NCBI GenBank assembly: GCA_964016885.1 | Contig: OZ024742.1 | Coordinates: 270,816,001 to 270,880,000, forward strand | From: Eledone cirrhosa | Lineage: Eukaryota | Length of the DNA: 64,000 nt | Direction of reading: 5' to 3' | In this document: positions 759 through 59,650 of the stretch, piece after piece | Layout of the letters: each line of letters starts with the position of its first letter | Numbering within the stretch: position 1 is the stretch's first letter | The notes under the pieces: model-generated | Databases searched by the model: none | What the model saw: only the letters and a program-made list of their open reading frames with translations | Told to the model about the DNA's origin: nothing | Position numbers and translations under genes: made by a program

Positions 759-855
759 ATATTGTAAAAAAAAGAAAACTTCTATTATGAAGTACATTCA
801 AGTATCACATCTGGGTACATTTGTTTGGTCTCCAGGAATTATTTTACGCAGAACG

Positions 856-2022
856 ATGGCGCTATGTTCTGTATCTGGTATTTTGGGTTCAATACTATTA
901 CTGTCATTGAGCTTCAGTATTCCTGATGAACTCACAGAACATCCGCTCCGCTCTTTTGATAATAGCTTACTGAGTAAATCTACGGTGAATTCACATTCAG
1001 GTGGCCTGCATTCGGTGAGAAAGTTCACACGTGTTGCTATGTCAAGCAACGACTATGACGCTCGCGCAAATCACTTACAGCACCAACAAACAAATGAAAC
1101 AAATTCCACAACATTTCTGACTACTCCTCTAAAGAATGATATGTCTCAAGAAAGAATAGGTTTGTTGGGAAGTGATGAGGTAAACGTCACAACTGAAGTG
1201 GGCATTGTGCCTAAACACTTTCAACAATATAATAGTGCATTTCTAGTTGTAATTGTGTGTAGTCACCCAGAACGTCTGGAGTACCGCCAGGCAATACGGG
1301 AAACATGGGGTTCATCTAGAGGCCAGGAATTCCATGTATTGTTTCTAACTGGTAAACACGAAGATCCGTATTGGAACGCATTGATGGATAAAGAAAACGC
1401 ACTCCACGGTGACATCTTACAAGTGGATGTTATTGATAGCTACAGGAATTTATCTTTGAAAGTAATTGGCGGCCTTTGCTGGATAACAGACAGTTTCCAA
1501 AATGTTGATTATGTCATGAAAACAGACGATGATGTGTACATAAATGTTTGGTATTTACTAAAACTTTTAAAAGAAAATGTTATTAGTCAACAGCAAATCC
1601 TAGGGGCTTTGTCAATAATGTCTCCAGTAAAAAGAGACCTCAGAGATCCGTGGGGTGTGAGATTCAGCGAGTTTGCTCCCAAGACGTATCCCCCGTACGT
1701 ATCAGGAGGGGCCTACGTTATGTCACAGAAGGCAGGTAAGAAACTATGTGTGGAGAAATGGAAAAGACAGTCACCTTTTATTCATCTAGAAGACGTTTAT
1801 GTAACAGGTATTTTAGCACAGGCAACCGGTATAAGCCACGTGGCTCATCCAGGTTTTTCATTTTGGACTAGCAAAAAGGCTAAAGCAGCCGATATTGCTA
1901 ACAATAAACGTGTGTCTAGTGTTAATATGACACCTAATCAAATTTACAAACTCCACAGACAATCGAATGCGTTACTTGTGAGTACAACATCATCGGTAAA
2001 TTCGAAAAAGGTTGAACGATGA
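856..2022 (+). CDS. GT31 family beta-1,3-galactosyltransferase-like type II membrane protein (B3GALT1/5-like), coding region in one exon
   Basis: ORF open from 787. Likely start is ATG 856 (MALCSVSGILGSILLLSLSF, hydrophobic anchor), just after an acceptor-like ...TCTCCAG at 835. GT31 motifs: RQAIRETWG, GDILQVDVIDSYRNLSLK, YVMKTDDDVYIN (DxD), YPPYVSGGAYVMS, LEDVYVTG. Stop TGA at 2020-2022. Confidence 0.93.
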   Translation: MALCSVSGILGSILLLSLSFSIPDELTEHPLRSFDNSLLSKSTVNSHSGGLHSVRKFTRVAMSSNDYDARANHLQHQQTNETNSTTFLTTPLKNDMSQERIGLLGSDEVNVTTEVGIVPKHFQQYNSAFLVVIVCSHPERLEYRQAIRETWGSSRGQEFHVLFLTGKHEDPYWNALMDKENALHGDILQVDVIDSYRNLSLKVIGGLCWITDSFQNVDYVMKTDDDVYINVWYLLKLLKENVISQQQILGALSIMSPVKRDLRDPWGVRFSEFAPKTYPPYVSGGAYVMSQKAGKKLCVEKWKRQSPFIHLEDVYVTGILAQATGISHVAHPGFSFWTSKKAKAADIANNKRVSSVNMTPNQIYKLHRQSNALLVSTTSSVNSKKVER

Positions 2023-6443: not shown

Positions 6444-6537
6444 TATATTTATTTATTAAAATAACAGATTAAAGTTTAAGCAAAGAATCGCTGTTTTCGG
6501 GCCCTCTTTGGACTTTAGTCTTCGAATTTATTATTAT

Positions 6538-6592
<55 letters not shown>

Positions 6593-11387: not shown

Positions 11388-11462
<75 letters not shown>

Positions 11463-11520
11463 AGGAATATGTCCGTGTCGTGTAACACAAATGAATATAT
11501 GATAGGGATGAACACTGATA

Positions 11521-11730
11521 TATATACAAATGAATATATGATAAGGATGAATACTGATACAAGTATACATGTGTTCGCATTGCAAATGACCAAGTTACCT
11601 AGGTTGAAAAATATTAATTAAATAATTTTAATTAGTATTTTTCAACCTAGCTAACTTGGTCATTTGCAATGGAACACATGTATAATTGTATCAGTATTCA
11701 TCCCTATCATATATTCATTTGTATATATAT
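11521..11730. repeat. Near-perfect ~210-bp palindrome made of two inverted pieces of the 40.6-41.3 kb HHR element family
   Basis: Arms TGCAAATGACCAAGTTACCTAGGTTGAAAAATATTAATTAAA and TTTAATTAGTATTTTTCAACCTAGCTAACTTGGTCATTTGCA. The same sequence occurs at 40800-40880 and 41255-41290. Confidence 0.85.
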
Positions 11731-11957: not shown

Positions 11958-12352
11958 AATATAAATATCCAGAACGTAAACATACACGGACTCAATTACG
12001 CGCATATACTAAAAAGTACGTAGCTGGACACTTTCTCACATAAGCGTATTTGCGACTACATAGAAAAACGGACAGGAACATACCTACACATACATATACA
12101 CAGATATATATGCACTCAAAAATGTACACACAAATAGGGACAGTAGTTACGAAACAGAAATAACTATCTAAATAAATAAGAACAAAATGTACAAAAAATA
12201 TATGTATATATTTAATAATATATGTAGAAATAAACACAGTAAATTCCGTGTCTAAAATTATGAGGGTAGAGAATGCCACAAATGTTTTATATATTTAATC
12301 TGAAACATACAGAGGGATATAATTATATACAGACCGTATCAATAACCATTTC

Positions 12353-12441
12353 ATCTCTCGGACAGGTTAGATATTTAATCTGTTTCGCCCTGAAAATTGT
12401 GTTTGTAACAGATAATCAGTAGGCTTTCCTCGGTGAGAGAT
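12353..12441 (-). ncRNA. Type I hammerhead copy with core CCGAGGA
   Basis: Reverse-complement copy of the 12917-13005 motif. Stem II GCCT..GGGC, U4C change in the core. Confidence 0.6.
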
Positions 12442-12916
12442 TAGATCAAATGAAACAAACACATCTAACAGCAACTCAAGAAGTAAATAATACACCTCGT
12501 GGGTTGTACACTATACGTGGTATGAGTGGTTATGCTAGAAATAATAGCCTTATTACACTCAACTTATAAGCTCACCAAGTTAGGGAGCCGAAATACAAAT
12601 AAAATAAAGAGTTATTAACTCATATTCATACCCTGCAATTAACAAGCTCAAAGTATAAATACTGAGCATTATATAATAATATATGTAGAAATAAACAGTA
12701 AATTTCGTGTCTGAAATTACGAGGGTAGAGAATGCCACAAATGTTTTATATATTTAATCTGAAACATACAGTAGGATATAATTCTATACAGACTGTATCA
12801 ATAACCATTTCATCTCTCGGACAGATTAGAGATTTAATCTATTCCGCCCTGAAAATTGTGTTTGTAACAGATAATCCGTAGGCTTTCCTCGGATGTGTTT
12901 TGTTTCATTTGATCTA

Positions 12917-13005
12917 ATCTCTCGCTGAGGAAAGTATACGGATTATCTGTTACAAACACAATTTTCAGGGCGAAACAGATTAAATCTCTAACCTGTCCGA
13001 GAGAT
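12917..13005 (+). ncRNA. Type I hammerhead ribozyme
   Basis: Stem I ATCTCTCG/CGAGAGAT (8 bp); core CTGAGGA; long stem II region (5' arm mutated in this copy); GAAA; stem III ACAG..CTGT; GUC triplet at 12995-12997. Confidence 0.75.
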
Positions 13006-14355
13006 GAAATGGTTATTGATACTGCCTGTACTAATTATATCCTACTGTATGTTTCAGATTAAATATATGAAACATTTGGGGCATTCTCTACCCTCGTAAT
13101 TTTAGACACGGAATATACTGTGTTTATTTCTACATATATTATTATATAATGCACATAACCATATATATTCTGAAACTACATTGCCCAGGGTACTTGGATA
13201 AGTATACTTCATTTTCATCAAATGGTTCCCCGGAGGCAGAAACACCCACGAAAAATGTTTACCCTTTGATTTATATGAAATTTAAACCATAGGTAAATGA
13301 CAAGATATGATGCCTATTAACAACATTTCAGCAAAATTCAATTATATTAAGACACCCTAACAGAGTTTTTCTCCCTAAATTACATCACTGATTTAAAATC
13401 AATCATCACGTTCTTACAAAAGAAATGTGTGAAACGCAGCAAGGTGCTGGTAATTCGGCTAGTATGCACATAAATACATAAATAAATGAAGCTAAGTATC
13501 CAGTAATATAGATAGTAACTCTGTTTTTTAGTCAAATTGTGTAATAAAAAGGTGATAGCTAAAAGTAAGTAAAACACAAAATCAGTTGTGTTGTACTCTC
13601 CTCCAATAACTCTCATTTCTGTAACACGACAATGGCATTTCCTTACGTATGAAACCCTGGTGATCCGACTTAATCTATAGATTTAAACATAAAATACAAA
13701 TCTATGCACTTAAAACTTACTTTATACTAATGCTTTTTCCCAAAAGGCATCTTAGAAAATCGTCGCATATGTACTAGATATACATTATTTAAACTCTTCC
13801 AACCCACTAATTTGTACACTAATATACACTACTATTGTTATGTCCGGTAAAACATGACAATTAAATATTATCGCAACTTTTTCTCCATACGTCATTTATT
13901 CTTGACGGATTCTAAAGCTTTAACACACATACTAACACACACATGCCATTTCTTAATTTATACTTCTTAATAAGTTCTTGTCTGAATTGTTGATTATTTC
14001 TGTATATTTAAACCAACATTCTATGCAATAGACAACACATCAACCTGACTATTATGTGAACTAATTTAAATGTGTTAGAATTTCATCGGTGACTGATGCC
14101 ATTCGTTAATTGTTCACAGATAAAAGATATTAATTATGAACTCACAACAGATATCAGAAAATTGGAATCCGACAGATTGACTTGCGAATTAGTTCGTTTT
14201 ATTAATAAATTATGGATGAGGTAACAGTGTTTTGTTTCAATGGTATTGTGTATAACAAAGAATAACCATAGATATTAGCAAACACTATGAATAAGAGGTA
14301 TACAAAAGTATGTCTCTAACTCACACAGACACACACACACACACTAACTCACACA

Positions 14356-14427: not shown

Positions 14428-14524
<97 letters not shown>

Positions 14525-14594
14525 CCAAGGAAGTGGCGTAGGGAACTAGATGGACCATAACGCACCAGAGTACTCAATACATAGGGTAATAGAG

Positions 14595-14670
14595 TGGGTA
14601 ATAGAAAAATGTTCAAGACCTCGACGACAGAGCTCAAGCCGTTTCGACGGCTATTTCTGGTCAATTTTCC

Positions 14671-16194: not shown

Positions 16195-17271
16195 TACATA
16201 CATATACACACATATATATATATATATATAAGCACTTTAATACATGAATACACTTACATCTAACTATACACATCAAACATATATATATATTTACTTAATT
16301 ATATACATTTTCACATATATATACATACTTATGGACGTTTTTAGACACATTCATTATCGCATATTTGTACCTATTCTCATCAGCATATCTTTTCATTATT
16401 AGTATGGTAATTTAAGGTTATTAATATATGTTGAGAAGAGATTGTTTTTATATTTTTCTAACTAGATTAAGGTTTATATAGTTGGGGGATGTCCCTCTTT
16501 TATGTAATATTCGGCTTGTAGTGGGAAAAAAGGGTTTTAGTTCTGTGACGGCAGAATAATGTTCGTTCAATTCTGTTATTCAGCAGTTTCTTCTTGTGTG
16601 TGATTATGTAATAAATCTCAAGATTACACAATTTGCAGAAATTTTGGCTCCTGGAAAAGCTTTGGGTTTTAGCTAATTTTTCCCATTTTAGGGTAAACAT
16701 TTGATTGCTATCCCTGAGCGTCCAAGCTTTTTCTGCTAAAGTTGTTACATAAAGTTGTTACGAGTATGTATGTATGTATATATGTGTGTGTCTATACGTG
16801 TGTATATAAAGATAAGTTGAGTATGAAAATGTATACACATGAGCGCGTATGTATGTACATGAATACATGTGTGTATATATATGTGTATGCATGTGTATAT
16901 ATATGTAAGTATGAATATGTGAATTGTGAGTATATGTATTTTGTAGAGGTGTGCAAATATATTTGTGTATGAATGCGTGGGTGAAAGGATACGTACACTT
17001 GAAAGAAAAATTTAAGTCTGAATGTTAATTAAGTGCAAACACAAAACCAACCACGCATATCTTTACTATCTCTAATCCTTCTATAGATTTAGAAAAATAA
17101 CCAATAATATATTCTATAAAAAATGTCAAAACAACAGATGGGAATCTAATTACTCACTGCCACCAATAATTCTCACTGCTATCGAAAAACCACTCCTTCA
17201 ACTATTCTTCTAACAACTTCACCCCTCCCTCCTAATATTCTCTATAAAAACTAAATAGGTCCTCAGTAATA

Positions 17272-18320: not shown

Positions 18321-21300
18321 TCTATGTTAAAAATCACATACGCTGGCGTTAAGCGGTAATGTCTAAGTATCTTAGTACAGACAATACAGTGCAGAGAGGC
18401 GGAATATTGTTAAGGCAAACTGTCTTAAGTTAAGTCGACAATTGTAGTTGTTGAGGCACGGTTGAAGGGCATAGGGTTAAGGACTAATGCATACACATAC
18501 GGTGGTTCGACAATCTGTCACAACTAAACTATCACCCGAGGGAGTTTTAGACTGAAAACTATTAACCTCTTCTACATCAACTAACCTAAGTATGAACAGA
18601 TACTTAAACTTACTAGCCCCCTTTGCACATGGTTTTCTGCATCCACAAGTTATACGTTGTTGTTTAATATATCCTAGGCTAAGACCCCAAAGAAGAGAGT
18701 TTGTTTCGGAAGAAAAACGCCCTTTTCAAAAAGACTGCAAATGCGGAGAGCAAATGAACAGTCCCCAGAAGCTGCTATTACGCCATTGCAAAAGGATGCA
18801 TCAACAGCCACTGCCCGAACTGCTGAGAGTAACGGACAGAGTGACCTTAGACCGGCAATAAATGATTTATCAGAAACCGACATCCGATCTGCTGAGGATG
18901 ACGACCAGTGTGCCCTGCGAAAAGCACGAAAAGCTGCATTAAAAGCCGCTGCCCGAACTGCTGAGACTGCAGAACAGCGTTACCTGCGTCTAAGAAAACT
19001 GCTGCATCAACTGCTGCCACTCGAACTGCTGAGAGTGCAGAAGAGCATGCCCAACGTCAACCAGAAGTTGCTGCGTCAACTGCTGCCACCCGTGCTGTTG
19101 AGAGTGCAGAACAGCTGCCTTTCCTCAAGCAGGAGATGCTGCATCAACTGCTGCCGCCCGAGCTGCTGAGACCTCCGACGCCTGACAGGATCGCCTGGAG
19201 AGTATCGCCCACCGTAGAAATACTTGGCAGTGTGTTTCAAGGCTATGTAGTTCAAGATGGATACTAGAAGCATTTGAATATAAGCCCGACAGCGACTATG
19301 CTAACCATCCAGACATGCTAATTTCGAGTATGCGAGATACTTCCACATTTTGCTCTGCGAATAAGTGGCCAGGAGAACCAGCGGACATGTATTGTGCAAA
19401 TGGAAAGGTCAAGTTACCCGCTCTAGAGGATTCGCCCCAGCCATTGCTGCTGCCTCTTACAGGCACAAACCCCAGAATCAAATCATTTCCTAAGTAATAC
19501 CAGAAAGTACAACTGTGCCGTTCAAATGACCTATTTCGGGGCGAATATCGCTAGGGAAGGTGGGTTTATGCCTACGTTATACATTCCAAGGGCATGTTTA
19601 CCATAGGACAGGACCACTTTAGCCCGTTGCGAACCAAGAACCTTAGTTTCCTCAACTGTACTTCGTTGGCAGCTACCAAGAGCAAGCGAGAAGACGAAAT
19701 ACTATATCACCCGGCACTAATTTCGAGCTGACATTGCAGCTCCAAGAGATGTTACATGCAAAATCAGTTATGTGCAGACTTTAAAATATATGTTAGAAAC
19801 AGCATCAATCCCCAATTTTAATGTTGTCATTAATGCTGACAAACGGCCATCTGGAGAGCATGCTGGCCGCTATAATCCGCCTACATGCAACGAAATCGCC
19901 ATTGTGCTTTAAGGTGAGCAGCCAAATCCAAGGGGCATCGTCTCACGTGTCGCGACAACACTCTTAAGCGAATCACTCAAATCCACCGATCCTACGACGC
20001 GCTAAAATACCTGTTGCTCTTCGTGAATGGAGAAGACGGTTATCATTTGGGCATACACCAGCGTAATCCTCACAGACCAGACGAGTCTATGCATACTGCT
20101 TCATGACCCGAAGAAACTGCCTGAATCATCTCCACAGTTCACGCGAGCTATTCCATCAATTTGCACTCGACATGTGCGCCAAGATGGAGTCCGAGAGGCT
20201 GCGCTACATCAGGTTCAACCAACAAAAGCTGCGTTCAGAGAGTTATATTCACCTTCGTGATGTTATCAACAATGACGGTGCTCCTGGAGGCTTAGGGCAG
20301 GTGTGCATTTTGCCTTCCACCTTCAAGGGGGTCCGCGGTATATGCATGAGAGGACGCAAGACGCCATTACATATGTGCGCCACTACGGTCGGCCGTTAAT
20401 TCATTACCTTTACCTGCAACCCCAAGTGGAAGGAGAGGAGGCTGAACTCTTCCAAGGCCTGAATGCCAAAGACAGGCATGACCCTCTAGCCAGGGTCTTC
20501 CGACTTAAGTTACAGAAACTCATGGACCTTATCAAGAAACGGCAGGTATTTGGGCCTGTAAAATGCGACATGTACACAGTTGAGTGGCAAAAAAGGGGTC
20601 TGCCACATGCCCATATTCTTATTTGGATATCAACAAAGATTAACTCCATCAACATTGACAGGCTTATCTCGACAGAACTTCCCAACCCCTATGTTGACAA
20701 AAATCCTCTATGACATAGTGCGGGCAAACATGGTTCATGGTCCATGCGGGCGTGAATTTAGCCTACACTCACCATGCTTGAGAGATTCAGTTTGCAGCAA
20801 AAAATTTCCGAAGCAGCTTCTTCAAGAGACCCAGACCGGCAAAGACGGATACCCCCTGTACAGACGAAGAAAGCTGGACGATGGCGGGTTTACAGTGCAC
20901 ATTGGGCCATACGAATTAGACATGTAGATAGTGCCATACTGTCCTACTCTATCCAAGGCGTTTAATGTAGAGTATTGCAACTCCGTGAAGTCCATCAAAT
21001 ATGTCTGCAAGTACACAATAAGGGCTCAGATGCTGCTATGTTCGACCTGCAGCAAGACGGCAATCGGGACCAAGTTACACTGTACCAAGGAGGTAGGTAC
21101 ATAAGCAGTAACGAGGCCTTTGGTGCCTTTTCGGTTTCCCCTTGCATCAAAGGTACCAACCCATCCAACAACTTGCTGTTCACCTTGAAAACGGTCAACA
21201 CGTATACTTCACTGCTTCCACTGCTGCTCGATTGGTCGAGGAATCGAAGAACACTACCCTCACTGCCTTCTTTAACTTTTGTCAAGTCGATCCATTCGCC

Positions 21301-24300
21301 CAAACTTTGTGATATCTACAGGTACCGTCCTACTACATCTGGAAAAAAAACAAGTGGCAACGGAAGAAGATGGGTCAACACGTTCATGGATACTCTGCTA
21401 TTAAATTTGACATTTGACTCGGGAGAGTTTACACAGTTCATTCAAACCAACAAGAGTGTTTCTACCTTCTTCTGCTACTTCAGGATGTTAGGGGACCAAC
21501 GTCTTACCAATATTTGAAAACAGTCTACGGTCGGCTTTGCGCTACTTTCAGAGAGGCCTGCTTAAGACATGGACTTTTAGAAGTCTGCGCACAGTGGGAT
21601 GCTACGTTCGCTGAGGCCGCCTTTTCACAGTCGCCGAAAAGTATCAGGGCTCTCTTTGCAGTGCTCCAGCACATTTGCGAAGTCTCAGATCTCGTATCTC
21701 TGTGGTTGAAGTATAGAGATGCTCTGGCGGAAGACTTTTACCACCAAACACAATTGCGGTATCCTAGCCTTGATGCTGCCAGTGACGACGTCTATAACTG
21801 TGCTTTGATTGACGTGGAAAACAGGACAGTTTCACTGGGTGGGAGTACTTCGCCAACGTACAGGCTGCCGCAACCAGTACGGACAGGGATTGATAACCTT
21901 CCGACAGAGCTCATTCGCGAAACAGCCTATGATATTGACGCTGTTGCCCAATACGTCCGTGAAACAGAGCCACGATTCTTCCGGTACAGCAGCGGGCCTA
22001 CAACACTATTTTCGACCATGTGCGAAACCGGAAAGGGGGAATCTTCTTCCTAGATGCACCTGGAGGGACAGGAAAAACGTTTGTAACTAAGCTCCTTCTA
22101 GCCAAAGTGAGGCAGCACAAGGACATCACGTTAGCCGTGGCATCCTCTGGTATTGCTGCAACTTTGTTACCTGGCGGTAGGACACCACACCCAGCCTTTA
22201 AGCTCGCCCTGAACTTGGCAACATCCGAGACACCGTCCTGCAACATTAGCAAAACTTCGGAAAGGGACTGGTTCTCCGATGGCATCAGCTCATAGTGTGG
22301 GATGAATGTACGATGGCCCATAAAGGAGTTCTGGAAGCACAAGACACTACTTTGCAAGGCATCAGAGACTGCCAGACTGCGATGGGAGGTGTCACCTTTC
22401 TCCTATCCGGGAAATTCTGACAGAACCTTCCCGTTATTCCCTAGGGAACCACGGCAGATGATGTCCTGGCGTGCCTCAGGTCCTCTCCGTTGTGGGAAAA
22501 GGTAACAAAGTTGACCCTGACAACTAACATGAGAGCCCAACTGCACGGCGACCAACTGGCAGCAGAGTTTACTTCGGATATTTTGTCACTTGGCGATGGC
22601 AAGATCACACTGGATGGAAATGGCGATTTGTCACTGTCAACACAGTCGAGGCCCTCAAGGCTCAAGTGTTTCCCAGTCTTCCTGATAACTATGTGAAAGA
22701 GCCATTTTAGCTCCAAAAAACAGCACGCTCAACGCTATCAACGAGCAACTGTTGCATTCTCTTCCTGGAATGCTGCATATTTACAAGTCCGCCGATACAG
22801 TCCCCGACCAAGACCAAGCGGTAAACTACCCTGTTCAATTCCTCAATTCGCTAGAACCTCCTGGACTGCCTCCTCATAGACTGGGACTAAACGTTGGAAC
22901 TCCAATAATGTTTCTTAGGAATTTGGATCCTCCAAAACTTAGCAACGGTACACGTCTGGTTATAAAGAAGGTAATGCAGCACGTCGTTGAAGCCACCATT
23001 GTTTCAGGGTGTGGCAAAGGAGAGGATGTGTTCGTTCGTAGAACACCACTCATTCCATCAGGTGCAGAAATTCCGTTTAGCTTCAGACATCTTCAATTTC
23101 CGCTTCTCATAAGTTTTGCCATGTCTATCAACAAGTCCCAGCGGCAGACAGTCTCGGTGGCAGGACTTCCCTTGGTAGAATCATGCTTCTCACACGGTCA
23201 AGTATACGTAGGCTGCTCCAGGGTGGGGAGCAAAGAAAGTTATTTCGCGAACACTCCACGCGGGAAAACAAAGAACATTGTCTACGAAGAGATTTTACGC
23301 CAATATACCATGTGTGCTCAAATGGACTAATCAAGGTAAGGTTGTATACTACTGCCCCTATATAATTTCCTATTTACACCTTCCTATTACCATCCTCACT
23401 ACAATCAGGTATAAGTCAGGAATTCGGAAACAACCACAGGCAGAAGGAATGACCAAAAAGAACTCGGATGAAACCTTCCACAGTTTTCCACTACATCAAA
23501 CGGCCACTGCTATATCCTCTGCAGATTGACACGTTGTAAGCAATGTCAATGTTACTACTGCTACATAGGACTCCCATTACCATCCGCAGTAGTCAGTTTA
23601 TTGAAGAAGAAAGAGAAGGGTCTCCCATTTGCCCTCCAAAACGCCATTGACAATAACGAAAACCGCTAACATCAATGGGGAATAATACAATGTAGGTCGC
23701 TTTAACCTTCTTTTATTAATCAAAAAACTTCTTGCCAATAAACATTAACCCTTTGTGCACCATTCATCTAACTGTAGACCAATATATTCTAACTAAACGG
23801 AGGATTGACAAGAACGATGGCGAATGAATCTTTGAGGTAAGCAGTTTCCTCCTGAGATGTTGGTTCAAGCAGGATTCTCTGCTACACCTTTTCGTAATAA
23901 TACCGAACAACCTACTGCTGGTCACTCCTTCTTCCAAAAGCCGTTCAAAGCGGACATGCGCATCAGGCAGATGGATTGGGTGCAAATCTACACCAGGCCT
24001 ACGCGAGAAATTCGCAAGGGTCTGCACCATGAGGGATTGAGAGAAAGAGTAATTTAGTGGAAAGAGTGCGAATGAAATGTTGATGTAAGTAGCCTACGCC
24101 TTACGGCTATGACACTGGGACCTTCTGCCAACTTAACCTGTGACTTTCTCTTTCACATTTACTCCAATAGGCCAACACAGAGGAGTATGGAAAGAAGGGG
24201 CTCAACAATATTTCTATGAACAATGCACGTAGACAGCTAGACTGTACTTTCAACTTCTTAATTTTCTCCAAATAAAATAAGTTTCCTGTCGGTATATTTT

Positions 24301-40585: not shown

Positions 40586-40649
40586 CTCTACTGCAATGAC
40601 TAAAAAGCTGAGTTTACCTCAACGGAAACTGGCGTTATCATTGATACAC

Positions 40650-41389
<740 letters not shown>

Positions 41390-52526: not shown

Positions 52527-53123
52527 AGTATCAGCCGTACTAAGACTCAGAAATGAATTTTCATTTTTTCGATTTATCGTTTTCGGAACACCGGGCCGAC
52601 TAACTAACTCGTTATGCAAATTAGGTTGCTCATTCGTTAATATACACGAGGAAAGTATATACTTTCAAACGTTCAATCGACAGACAGGGAGTTATACGAT
52701 GCTGATGACAGCTAATAAGCTATAACTAGTTCACCGTTCCTTAGTCAGTGTTGAACAAACGAGCAACGATGGTTGCCGAACACTTTACGGCTAATAATTC
52801 GGGCTGTTTGTTTACAAACAAACCGAGAATTATAATAAATGTTCGGTAAATCCATACGTACATATATATATGTGGGCATGTATGTGTGAATATACAGACT
52901 AGTGTACGTATGTATACATATATGTATGTACTTATAGATACTTATATTTAAGTATCAGTCGTACTAAGAGTGAGAATGAAATTTCGTTTCATTTTTTCCA
53001 TTTATCGTTTTCGGTGCGCTCGGTCGTCTAACTCACTCTATAATCAAATTAAGCTGCTCAGCCGTTAATATGCATAATGAAAGAATATACTTTCAAACGT
53101 TGAATCGACTGACAGGTAGGTAT

Positions 53124-53166
53124 ACGATGCTGATGACAGCTAATAAGTTAGAAACTAGTTCATCGT
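53124..53166 (+). ncRNA. Minimal type I hammerhead (array unit 2)
   Basis: ACGATG-CTGATGA-C-AGCT-AATA-AGTT-A-GAAAC-TA-GTT-CATCGT. 6-bp stem I, palindromic ACTAGT stem III, GUU triplet. Confidence 0.75.
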
Positions 53167-53903
53167 TCCTTAGTCAGTGTTGAACAAACGGGCATCGATG
53201 GTTGCCTAACACTTTACGGCTACTAATTCGGGCTGTTTGTTTACAAACAAACCGAGCATTATAATAGATGTTCTTTAAAACCATACGTACATATATGTAT
53301 GTGTGCATGTATGTATGTACATACTAGTGTACGTCTGTATCCATATATGTATGTACGTATACATAATTATATTTAAGTATCAGTCGTACTAAGTAAGATG
53401 ACAATTGAAATTTCATTTTTTCCATTCATCGTATTCGGTACACCCGGCCGACTAACAAACTCGATATGGAAATTAGGCTGCTCAGCCGTTAATATACAAA
53501 AAGAAAGTATATACTTTCAAACGTTCAATCGACTGACAGGAAGGTATAAGATGCTGATGACAGCTAATATGCTAGAGATTAGTTCTTCGTTCCTTATTCA
53601 GTGTTGAAAAAAAGGGCAACGATGGTTGCCGAACACTGTACAGCTACTAATTCGTCTGTTTGTTTAGAAACAAACCGTACATTATAATAAATGTTCGATA
53701 AACCCATACGTGCATATATATATGTATGTGCATGTATGTATATACATACGGGCAACAATGGTTGCCGAACACTGTACGGCTACTATTTAAGGCTACTATT
53801 TAAGCATAATAAATGTTCGGTAAACCCATGCGTACATATATGTGAGCATGCATGTATACATATACATACTAGTGTACGTCTGTATACATACATATATTTA
53901 CGT

Positions 53904-55766: not shown

Positions 55767-56716
55767 TCAATGAAGCTGTTGGTAGCAGCCAAGCCAACGA
55801 ATACAGTTTCGGTGTACAGCTAAGCTCTCAATGGAGAATATCACCCCAGAGTTATAACATTACGTTTAGACAGCTTTGCAAATCAAATACTGCGACCGAT
55901 AGACGGGCCGCAGAGACCATAGCGACGAAAAAGACTGAACTCAGGAAAAATGTTTGACTGACCTGGACCATCGCGTAGACATTACATGAAACAAATAATG
56001 TATACCATACAATATACATCACATACAACATACAACATCTCCGCTAGGTTTCTGTAAATCCGAAATCGACAAAATCCACTTGCAGGGTTCTGTAAGTTAA
56101 TGGCTTTTGACGACAGAATAAAGGAATTTACTTCGTCAACAAGTTTGTTCTTCTGTTCCTCATGGGTGTGCGTTCTAGCAGTAAGCACAGCAAAGGCACA
56201 TGGTTCTCCGAAAGGGAGGTAACCCCCATTTTTTCGGTCAATTCGAAATTTGGAACAAAGGAATAAAATTCCCTTACACAAACCGAATTAAGCACTCAAC
56301 TAGAAGTTATCAAACAAACATAAACAATTAATCAATCAATAGAATTGTATAATTAAATTAATCAATTAATCATTAATTTTATGAGTTAATAATACACATT
56401 TTAGAACAGCATCAACGAAGCTTTTGGTTGCAGCCAAGCTAACGAATGCAGTTTCGGTGTGCGGATAAGCACTCAATGGAGAATATTACCCCAGAGTTAT
56501 AACATTACGTTTAGACAGCTTTGCAAATCAAATAGAGCGACCGATAGACGGGCCGAAGAGACCATAGCGACGAAAAAGACTGAACTCAGGTAAAATGTTT
56601 GACTGACCTGGACCATCGCGTAGACATTACATGAATCACATAATGAATACCATACAATATACATCACATACAACATACAACATCTCCGCTAGGTTTCTGT
56701 AAATCCGAAATCGACA

Positions 56717-57809: not shown

Positions 57810-58440
57810 TGACTCATGCGTGCGAAGGGGGTCGGGTTCGAAGCAGGATATCCTCCGGGTATTCCGGTCACAAGTCGGGGTTGGGCGTTGGAGCCCGCTG
57901 GTCGGAAACTTAGGGCGCCGATTTCCACAGAGGATAGGACTCCACTGACGTACTTCGTCTATTTATATCATCTAGTGTCAGCTAATTTGAGTTCTGGTTA
58001 AGGAAGTGAGAGAGAGGGGTTGACCACAGCGTGTGAGGCATGGTTTAGCTGCTAGGAGTTGTGTTGCTATATGAGTCGATTGAGGCGGGAGTAGAGGTGG
58101 GGAGTATGTAGGGGTTGGTTTAACTTGGGCTCGGTGAGACGGGGCTGCTGTCCCTATAGCTTGAGAGAAGTTCCTATCCCAATGGGTTGTTATCCATATA
58201 GCTTGAGGAAGGTTCCGGCCCTGAAGTATCTACATATATCAAAGAAGTCGGTCCTAAGGTTGATTAGGCTGCTCCCACCTCTGAGTATCTCGAGGGTTTC
58301 GCTCAGACATAGGTTGCAGATGCCAGATACCCCTCTATCAGGTGGCACATTCCTGATTTGGGACCAGACAGAGAGTACAGGGTCCTGTCGAGCTTGAGCT
58401 TTCAGATCAATTCGAAAAGACCCGTACCTTTCCTTTTTCC
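57810..58440 (-). mobile_element. Penelope-like GIY-YIG C-terminal remnant plus pLTR
   Basis: Minus strand WSQIRNVPP..GICNLCLSETLEILRGGSSLINLRTDFFDICR. Degenerate HHR CACT-AGATGA..GAAGTACGTC-AGTG at ~57942-57980. Confidence 0.7.
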
Positions 58441-58649
58441 CTCCCTATTAAAGAAATGACGATAGTTATATCATTTGTCTTTGAAGCTCGTTGATGTGGC
58501 TCCTATGTAAACAAGACACCTAAACAAAACACCTACTCTAGTGATTAATTGCCTTAAATTATATAAGTTATCGTTGGTTGCCATAACCGCAACCTGCACA
58601 CTATTCCTTACACAGACACACATATATTTCAGTACGGATCCCCCCATCC

Positions 58650-59040: not shown

Positions 59041-59650
59041 CATATATATAAAATAAGGACAGAAATAAAACTGAAATCATTTGCAAGGAAGTAACTGTCT
59101 GAGATGCACTCAATAATATAATTGTCACAATGTCTCCAATGATTTTATCCTACCCTAGTCAGGTTCCATAATTTTATAGTAAAAGGAGTAAAGTGTTTTA
59201 GGTTGACAAGATGGAGTTAATTAATTTCTTGCATTTCGAATATCGAATTTGTATCTCAGTATTTCGAACGCCCCCGTTAAGCAATTATTACATTTAGATC
59301 TATTTACCGCATAAAACCTTGCTCTATTAATCAGATAATTCTTAGTATCATACCTAACCTTATCTTCTTTAAAATGCCTTATTAATTTTGCCAGCAGAGT
59401 TTTATTTTTCAGTTTCCTGTTTTTAAATAATTGAGTACGAGCGTAAAATATAGTTTTGAAATTATTGGCAGTAGCACCCGTATCTATATATAATATTTGC
59501 CTTAAAGCATTCAGCATCAAATGGGCAAATGGTTTGGTTTCTGCAATTACAAATCACAATAATGGGGCGATTATAATTGTTGCTAATAACCCTACTATTA
59601 TTTCTACCATCAAATGTATCTCTAATACAATTAGCCACGCATAAATGTTC
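58650..59650 (-). mobile_element. Penelope-like GIY-YIG remnant plus AT-rich tail
   Basis: CNCRNQTICPF..C, TGATANNFKT...NKTLLAKLI..K...KCNNCLTG.FEI...NARNE-like. Confidence 0.7.

Follow-up and report, generated by a model that had tools for sequence, protein, structure and literature searches.

The question raised by this locus is what function is served by the RNA elements shared between two divergent hammerhead-bearing insertions in a 64,000-nucleotide stretch of the Eledone cirrhosa genome (the window, meaning the whole stretch analysed). A sequence-only reading had described a three-hairpin module common to the units at 12 kb and 40 kb, and proposed for it a selected RNA structure, such as a reverse transcriptase (RT) recognition or priming signal, a ligation element or a second unknown ribozyme. 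All blocks that it named in the two units are present where they were placed, and the parts of the two insertions, here assigned to families A and B, are as follows.

12199..13157, no strand: family A insertion, back-to-back arms of an ORF-less 467-nt hammerhead unit (minus arm 12199-12892, about 1.5 units; plus arm 12892-13157)
12355..12439, minus: type I hammerhead of the family A minus arm, with core change CCGAGGA for CTGAGGA in the window copy
12534..12548, minus: H4 of family A (GCUA..UAGC), seen only in the A/B lineage; pairing retained, registers differ
12570..12588, minus: H3 of family A, second bulged hairpin
near 12593, minus: site 2 of family A, about 5 nt 5' of H3, from end mapping
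12609..12621, minus: H2 of family A (GAGUU-3-AACUC), lineage-specific, without covariation, within the 'tail'
12636..12641, minus: TAATTG block, common to families A and B, within the 'tail'
12646..12667, minus: H1 of family A, first bulged hairpin (GCUC..GAGC), a motif also found in autonomous Hydra leaders
near 12670, minus: site 1 of family A, about 3 nt 5' of H1, from end mapping
12919..13003, plus: type I hammerhead of the inverted family A arm, intact core, altered stem II
40649..41288, no strand: family B insertion, back-to-back arms of an ORF-less 498-nt hammerhead unit, both outer ends off-site (minus arm 40649-40929; plus arm 40930-41288)
40685..40700, minus: H3 of family B, minus arm, with site 2 near 40706, about 6 nt 5' of H3
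40718..40730, minus: H2 of family B
40745-40750: TAATTG block of family B
40755..40780, minus: H1 of family B, with site 1 near 40787, about 7 nt 5' of H1
40957..40972, plus: H3 of family B, plus arm, followed by H4 at about 40995-41013 (plus)
41099..41176, plus: type I hammerhead of family B; the CAGAAGA core variant is the family consensus, and the window copy is without one A of GAAA

Several other features were observed in the window. A decayed back-to-back fragment of family B type occupies 11457-11724, its right arm stopping at site 1 in (TA)n, and further ACUC..GAGU bulged hairpins at 56497, 36632 and 31360 (all minus) probably belong to other Hydra-type families. Decayed fragments at 16512-16856, 58205-58533 and 59176-59551 resemble the Hydra endonuclease region, and a tandem repeat with a 424-bp period (2.8 copies) spans 52550-53749. 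In addition, an open frame of 420 aa at 760-2022 (plus) is presumably related to a glycosyltransferase exon, and the broken frames at 20966-23330 (plus) we take to resemble a Helitron helicase.

Two families of short hammerhead units

In a search of the 3.0-Gb assembly, family A returned 1947 first-look candidates and family B 1658, with 40 scored for each, and a pattern joining H1 to TAATTG matched the genome 2456 times as compared to 10 matches for the reversed control. The consensus units, built from about 30 copies each, measure 467 nt (A) and 498 nt (B) and contain one type I hammerhead per unit, arranged as stem I-core-stem II-GAAA-stem III-UC-stem I, with CAGAAGA as the core variant in family B; the Rfam covariance models give the window hammerheads of the two families no score. 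The longest stop-free frames of the consensus units are 55 aa (A) and 80 aa (B), and loci mostly hold one or two units. None of 71 A/B-type H3 copies runs into a Hydra ORF start, therefore, as far as sampled, families A and B are ORF-less units and not the ends of coding elements; a hammerhead follows within 400 nt after H3 in 64 of the 71. Being short, non-coding, present in high copy number and equipped with a type I hammerhead, they appear to be non-LTR retrozyme-like units. Animal non-LTR retrozymes are described as short, AT-rich, non-coding and partly tandem, with a type I hammerhead, and it has been proposed that they derive from Penelope-like elements as non-autonomous forms (Cervera and de la Pena 2020, PMC7229834; Li et al. 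2026, 10.64898/2026.07.22.740005); as far as these texts were available, they name no cis signal and leave open how retrozyme RNA is recognised and primed by an RT.

Comparison of the two consensus units locates their likeness. The module is the best-preserved part, with 88 of 134 positions identical (z 8.6 versus shuffles), which together with the genome-wide pattern counts bears out the claim that the resemblance exceeds chance. The stretch from the cleavage site to H1 reaches z 4.0, the hammerhead z 4.5, and the interval from H4 to the hammerhead is at chance level (z -0.5); since z differs along the unit, its decay is non-uniform, although homology still extends beyond the module. That A and B align outside the module as well, and that their stems lack compensatory change, would fit plain common descent, with the hairpins persisting as functionless relics in both families; the positions at which copies end, discussed below, bear directly on this explanation.

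The functional core is probably not a set of three hairpins, as first described, but two copies of one bulged hairpin (H1 and H3), with the form RCUC-[stem-loop]-2-nt bulge-GAGY and a length of about 20-35 nt. Folding of the two whole modules gives modest z values (-2.0 and -1.2), the minimum free energy (MFE) fold of the 12-kb module loses H1, and the local MFE folds of H1 in A and B slip from the 2-nt-bulge register; H3 of family A has a 1-nt bulge. Because the stems are identical in sequence between A and B, this pair alone displays no covariation, and no compensatory change was found in H2, which is deleted in one subfamily (locus L086). Rfam 15 returned no covariance-model match for 12530-12670 at E up to 10, and for 40673-40770 one sub-threshold lncRNA match (E 7.7) and nothing relevant.

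The twin hairpin in autonomous Hydra-clade elements

The Hydra clade of Penelope-like elements, including Hydra-1_Obim, was described by Craig et al. 2021 (PMC8557442), where it is marked by an RWK-type motif, DKT, a CxCX5C linker before the C-terminal GIY-YIG domain and the lack of a CCHH motif. A search of the present genome for the GIY-YIG family yielded at least 150 scored matches. Hydra-1 was reached through ORF fragments adjoining modules in two loci, L010 and L090, which were not used as proof of partnership; L090 appears to be a nested insertion and L010 is ambiguous. Hydra-1 has intact 709-aa ORFs (18,877 candidates, 150 scored), and in the copy at L142 its motifs lie at positions 37 (RWR), 115 (DKT), 346 (YRDDG), 564 (CNCRNRADC) and 598 (YIG). 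A single CxxC, relevant to the CCHH motif, was located near the C-terminus by pattern search only, and a Pfam search with the Hydra-1 protein found no significant family. Hydra-2 has an ORF of 717 aa with RWR, DKT, YRDDG and CNCPDRSIC, and a copy of it is about 50% identical to Hydra-1. The motif content suggests that both are Hydra-clade Penelope-like elements, and both have a hammerhead in the pseudo-LTR (pLTR) and insert into (TA)n. Thus, the relatives found here match the clade as published in a single ORF of 709-717 aa, RWR, DKT, CxCX5C, a pseudo-LTR hammerhead and (TA)n targets, whereas families A and B differ from it in encoding no protein (PMC8557442). A very young Hydra family was also noticed (L161-L177), with many near-identical intact 717-aa copies, some of them in 3.5-kb tandems.

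In both of these protein-coding families a twin hairpin lies between the hammerhead and the start codon. The leader of Hydra-1 consists, in order, of the hammerhead, a GCUC..GAGC hairpin, a spacer, a GGCUCC..UUGAGCACU hairpin and the ATG, and that of Hydra-2 has the same layout in unrelated sequence, its first hairpin being ACUC..GAGU. In the available supplement of PMC8557442, a consensus listed directly ahead of Hydra-1_Obim terminates in a hammerhead followed by GCUC..UUGAGCACU and a short spacer; in the main text of that paper, a term search found 'hairpin', 'bulge' and 'initiation' all absent.

Conservation of the motif was assessed in Hydra families from metagenome contigs, which were scanned with an alignment of 34 proteins (one query and 33 of 120 listed homologues). 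The scan gave 78 loci at about 40% identity, of which 54 include the N-terminus; the 47 with 120 nt or more upstream collapsed to 36 families. A loose form of the motif occurs at least once in 35 of the 36 leaders and at least twice in 25, compared with 4.3 and 0.25 in shuffles, and with 29 and 2 of 303 windows taken from ORFs. The strict form, which ignores upper-stem pairing, is present in 34 families and occurs twice in 23, at a spacing of 55-83 nt. If a bulge of 2 nt on the 3' side is assumed, the three pairs that follow it are of Watson-Crick type in 53, 37 and 29 of 57 instances, against permuted expectations of 37.5, 19.4 and 14.9 (0/5000 each, permuting within position class and ignoring kinship), and all four pair types are found at the second and third upper pair. 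For bulge sizes of 0, 1 or 3 the excess is not comparable (best 195/5000). The bulge bases are UU in 38 instances, UC in 10 and UA in 5, and the basal helix yields little covariation because it is nearly invariant. Pair counts were made by script; a MAFFT alignment of six hairpins came out of register.

By these results, the proposal of a selected RNA structure stands for the H1/H3 motif, whose upper stem covaries in autonomous leaders, and gains no support from covariation in the A/B pair taken alone or in H2. Likewise, the module is carried by autonomous leaders in respect of its twin H1/H3-type hairpin; the middle hairpin H2 is found in none of the 36 metagenome families, and TAATTG occurs in just 5 of them, counting its presence anywhere in the leader. 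Conversely, an ACU 3' of GAGC is present in most autonomous copies and absent from A and B.

Where copies end and how the ends are paired

Genomic copies of the units stop at the hairpins. The first 90 loci contain 115 distinct H1 instances; the full module was scored for 56 of them and not for the other 59, most of which stop in the linker directly before H3 and are followed by (TA)n. When the ends were mapped on circular units, they formed two clusters, directly 5' of H1 (site 1) and directly 5' of H3 (site 2). Counting as on-site any A/B end within 12 nt 5' of H1 or H3, for which a uniform distribution predicts 5-6%, 93/124 of the 3' ends of family A are on-site, and 57/60 of those followed by TA; the corresponding figures for family B are 73/109 and 63/75. 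The 5' ends, used as a control, are on-site in 4/129 (B) and 27/133 (A), and the latter value is probably inflated by SINEs that interrupt site 1.

The repeat responsible for these interruptions, which we take to be tRNA-headed and SINE-like, breaks family A in antisense orientation, with no fewer than 12 of 30 anchored loci (L259-L288) affected at site 1. Its copies in family A have differing 5' truncations and short duplications, and therefore represent independent insertions. A special system in which the SINE targets family A was considered and rejected: it has 95,787 exact matches genome-wide, and the 100 listed adjoin varied AT-rich sequence ending mostly in ATAAT. Its occupancy of site 1 in family A still appears high.

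Samples anchored upstream of both sites gave a similar picture in four families. In family B, 30 of 31 copies stop at one of the two sites. For family A, 15 of 19 scored copies are on-site (including one SINE junction and one locus counted twice), three end elsewhere and one reads through; 12 non-aligning copies were left out of this sample, and all 11 that were inspected are SINE insertions at site 1. The 51 anchored copies of Hydra-1 comprise 19 that stop before the first hairpin, 19 before the second, 12 that enter the ORF and one that ends elsewhere, and the 25 of Hydra-2 comprise 8 and 10 at the two sites, 6 entering the ORF and one other. Thus, in families A, B, Hydra-1 and Hydra-2, the 3' ends accumulate about 0-7 nt 5' of one or the other hairpin, where (TA)n follows, in locus samples that were anchored on best matches or patterns and are non-random, and at positions blurred by a few bases through TA microhomology. 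In the metagenome families, 57 leader matches were sorted by eye, and after 11 contig ends and 25 cross-family matches had been set aside, 12 of the remaining 21 same-family ends stop 0-4 nt before a hairpin, one stops before a variant hairpin and 8 lie elsewhere.

These ends speak to three of the explanations that compete with a priming signal. Since copies of A and B themselves stop at the two sites, the signal was in use when the families spread, and the relic explanation is largely refuted for H1 and H3; as an account of the A/B likeness as a whole it is highly improbable, and it probably holds for H2, TAATTG and H4. A second possibility is that each hairpin directs cleavage of the RNA directly 5' of itself, as a second small ribozyme or through a host nuclease, and that the new RNA 3' ends enter ordinary end-primed target-primed reverse transcription (TPRT). 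The same genomic ends would be expected, and the motif has invariant unpaired bases (the UY bulge and the ACU tail) that a cleaving RNA might require; nevertheless, it is only about 20-35 nt long and has no Rfam match, we know of no catalytic core that it resembles, and the offsets range from 0 to 7 nt and vary between families. Furthermore, the Penelope-like element PAc starts internally on unprocessed RNA (PMC11167929), and RNA cleavage is accordingly very unlikely. The earlier suggestion of a second ribozyme found no support and is itself unlikely, nor was any support found for a ligation element.

The third of these explanations places the choice of ends in the linkers, to which a nicked (TA)n primer would anneal, with the hairpins serving elsewhere, for example in translation control before the ATG or in RNP assembly. 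It draws on the composition of the 8 nt 5' of the hairpins in the metagenome families, which is 78% AT, and on the TAT microhomology between ends and target. We consider it distinctly unlikely: TATA or ATAT occurs at 19 positions per unit in A and 13 in B, yet TA-followed ends cluster at two hairpin-adjacent spots, the ends of Hydra-2 share just about 3 nt with the target, and the hairpins are retained in the ORF-less A and B. Free annealing also fails to predict how the two ends of an insertion are combined.

This combination was examined in back-to-back insertions, defined by two outward-facing 3' ends, of which the loci analysed in this genome contain 100 blocks. After removal of 15 SINE-junction blocks, 85 were scored; both ends are on-site in 53, and at least one is off-site in 32. 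Site 1 is paired with site 2 in 52 of the 53, site 1 with site 1 once, and site 2 with site 2 never (p of about 6e-15 versus 50%; independent choice gives at most 50% mixed pairs), and before SINE removal the mixed pairs were 53 of 63. They are distributed over family B (18), Hydra-2 (14), Hydra-1 (11) and family A (9), and 48 of the 52 have TA on both sides. The two main insertions of the window both break this rule, the one at 12 kb being the single site 1 plus site 1 case and the one at 40 kb lying off-site at both ends. Two small leader fragments in the window follow the pattern:

6448..6543, no strand: autonomous Hydra-1 leader fragment, back-to-back, with (TA)n at site 1 on one side and at site 2 on the other
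14524..14670, no strand: Hydra-2-type leader fragment, back-to-back, with a hammerhead and an ACUC..GAGU hairpin and (TA)n on both sides

In the 12-kb insertion, the right end (window 13150-13175) stops two bases into H1, after which come a few bases similar to the last part of H4; this may reflect an internal deletion, and the single site 1 plus site 1 case would thereby be explained. Many tiny back-to-back insertions were also observed, at L016, L026, L039, L065, L076, L123, L156, L159, L165, L299 and L309 (Hydra-2 type) and at L145 and L169 (Hydra-1). Their arms differ by about one tail length (e.g. 59 and 140 nt), and thus both stop at nearly one 5' point, which lies upstream of the cleavage site and within the hammerhead region.

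A putative start signal for reverse transcription

Of the functions originally suggested, RT recognition or priming is the one favoured by ends that lie directly 5' of H1 and H3 in four families and by the conservation of the motif in Hydra leaders. H1 and H3 are likely to be a reverse-transcription start signal that is read twice per insertion, each a putative RT-binding bulged stem, and double reading of this kind would explain the one-sided 'tail' of Penelope insertions. The closest known counterpart is PAc, a Poseidon element of Anolis, for which Frangieh et al. 2024 (PMC11167929) report internal RT initiation. The PAc protein, for which dimerisation is predicted, cleaves AT-rich DNA on both strands and extends both, two internal start sites bound the tail, RNA 3' of the start is required, and uncleaved RNA is used (PMC11167929). 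The signature described here is genomic and comes from four families; as in PAc, two putative internal starts lie downstream of the hammerhead and mark the limits of the tail. [quoted passage not shown] The tails are also longer, about 55-90 nt, as compared to 30-40 in the Hydra clade as published (PMC8557442).

A more specific model has, in our estimation, a slightly better than even chance of being correct. It holds that a twin RNA handle, common to the whole clade, brings two telomerase-like RT active sites onto one transcript, one per hairpin, so that both (TA)n strands are primed in one event; the handle would set the insertion ends and the one-sided tail, and would be the minimal cis signal that retrozymes keep. 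The Hydra protein would nick both strands of the (TA)n target, and two RT active sites would dock on RNA that is uncleaved or circular, one at each hairpin. They would each prime on one nicked strand and copy the RNA 5' of their own hairpin, with template reading starting in the single-stranded linker 5' of the hairpin, and the two cDNAs would then join head to head. The stretch from H1 to site 2 (79-88 nt here) would consequently be found as a 'tail' at just one of the two ends. In this view, loss of the ORF would have made parasites of families A and B, and their retention of the hammerhead and the twin hairpin suggests that they are copied in trans by a Hydra RT.

The remaining alternative transfers the action of the hairpins to the DNA or resolution stage, where the GIY-YIG endonuclease would recognise them in cDNA or DNA and trim directly 5' of each. 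Genomic ends alone fit priming and trimming alike, Craig et al. attribute the tail to endonuclease-mediated resolution (PMC8557442), and the D. virilis endonuclease required the tail for recognition (as cited in PMC11167929). We nevertheless regard trimming as unlikely, since the two RT starts of PAc were mapped directly and coincide with the tail ends (PMC11167929), and since the hairpin responsible for an end is not part of the copied DNA and would be present only in the RNA template, unless the cDNA first extends past it.

A full-text search of the literature, with subscription papers, Repbase notes and most supplements outside its scope, returned no description of the twin hairpin or of the end pairing, which apparently makes the twin hairpin an undescribed RNA signal of a known element class. 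As compared to the available accounts of retrozymes, a putative cis signal and a partner clade can be named here. Penelope-like RTs are the sister group of telomerase, and the work cited here leaves open how they settle on an internal start, what makes their insertions back-to-back and tailed at a single end, and by which means an RT recognises a retrozyme. A short motif, repeated twice, at a fixed offset to the ends and with near-strict use of one site per end, makes all three questions testable. If the proposed role is true, the twin hairpin would provide a portable tag with which an RT could be directed to any RNA for copying into (TA)n sites, and would offer a simple means to assign retrozymes to their partner clade.
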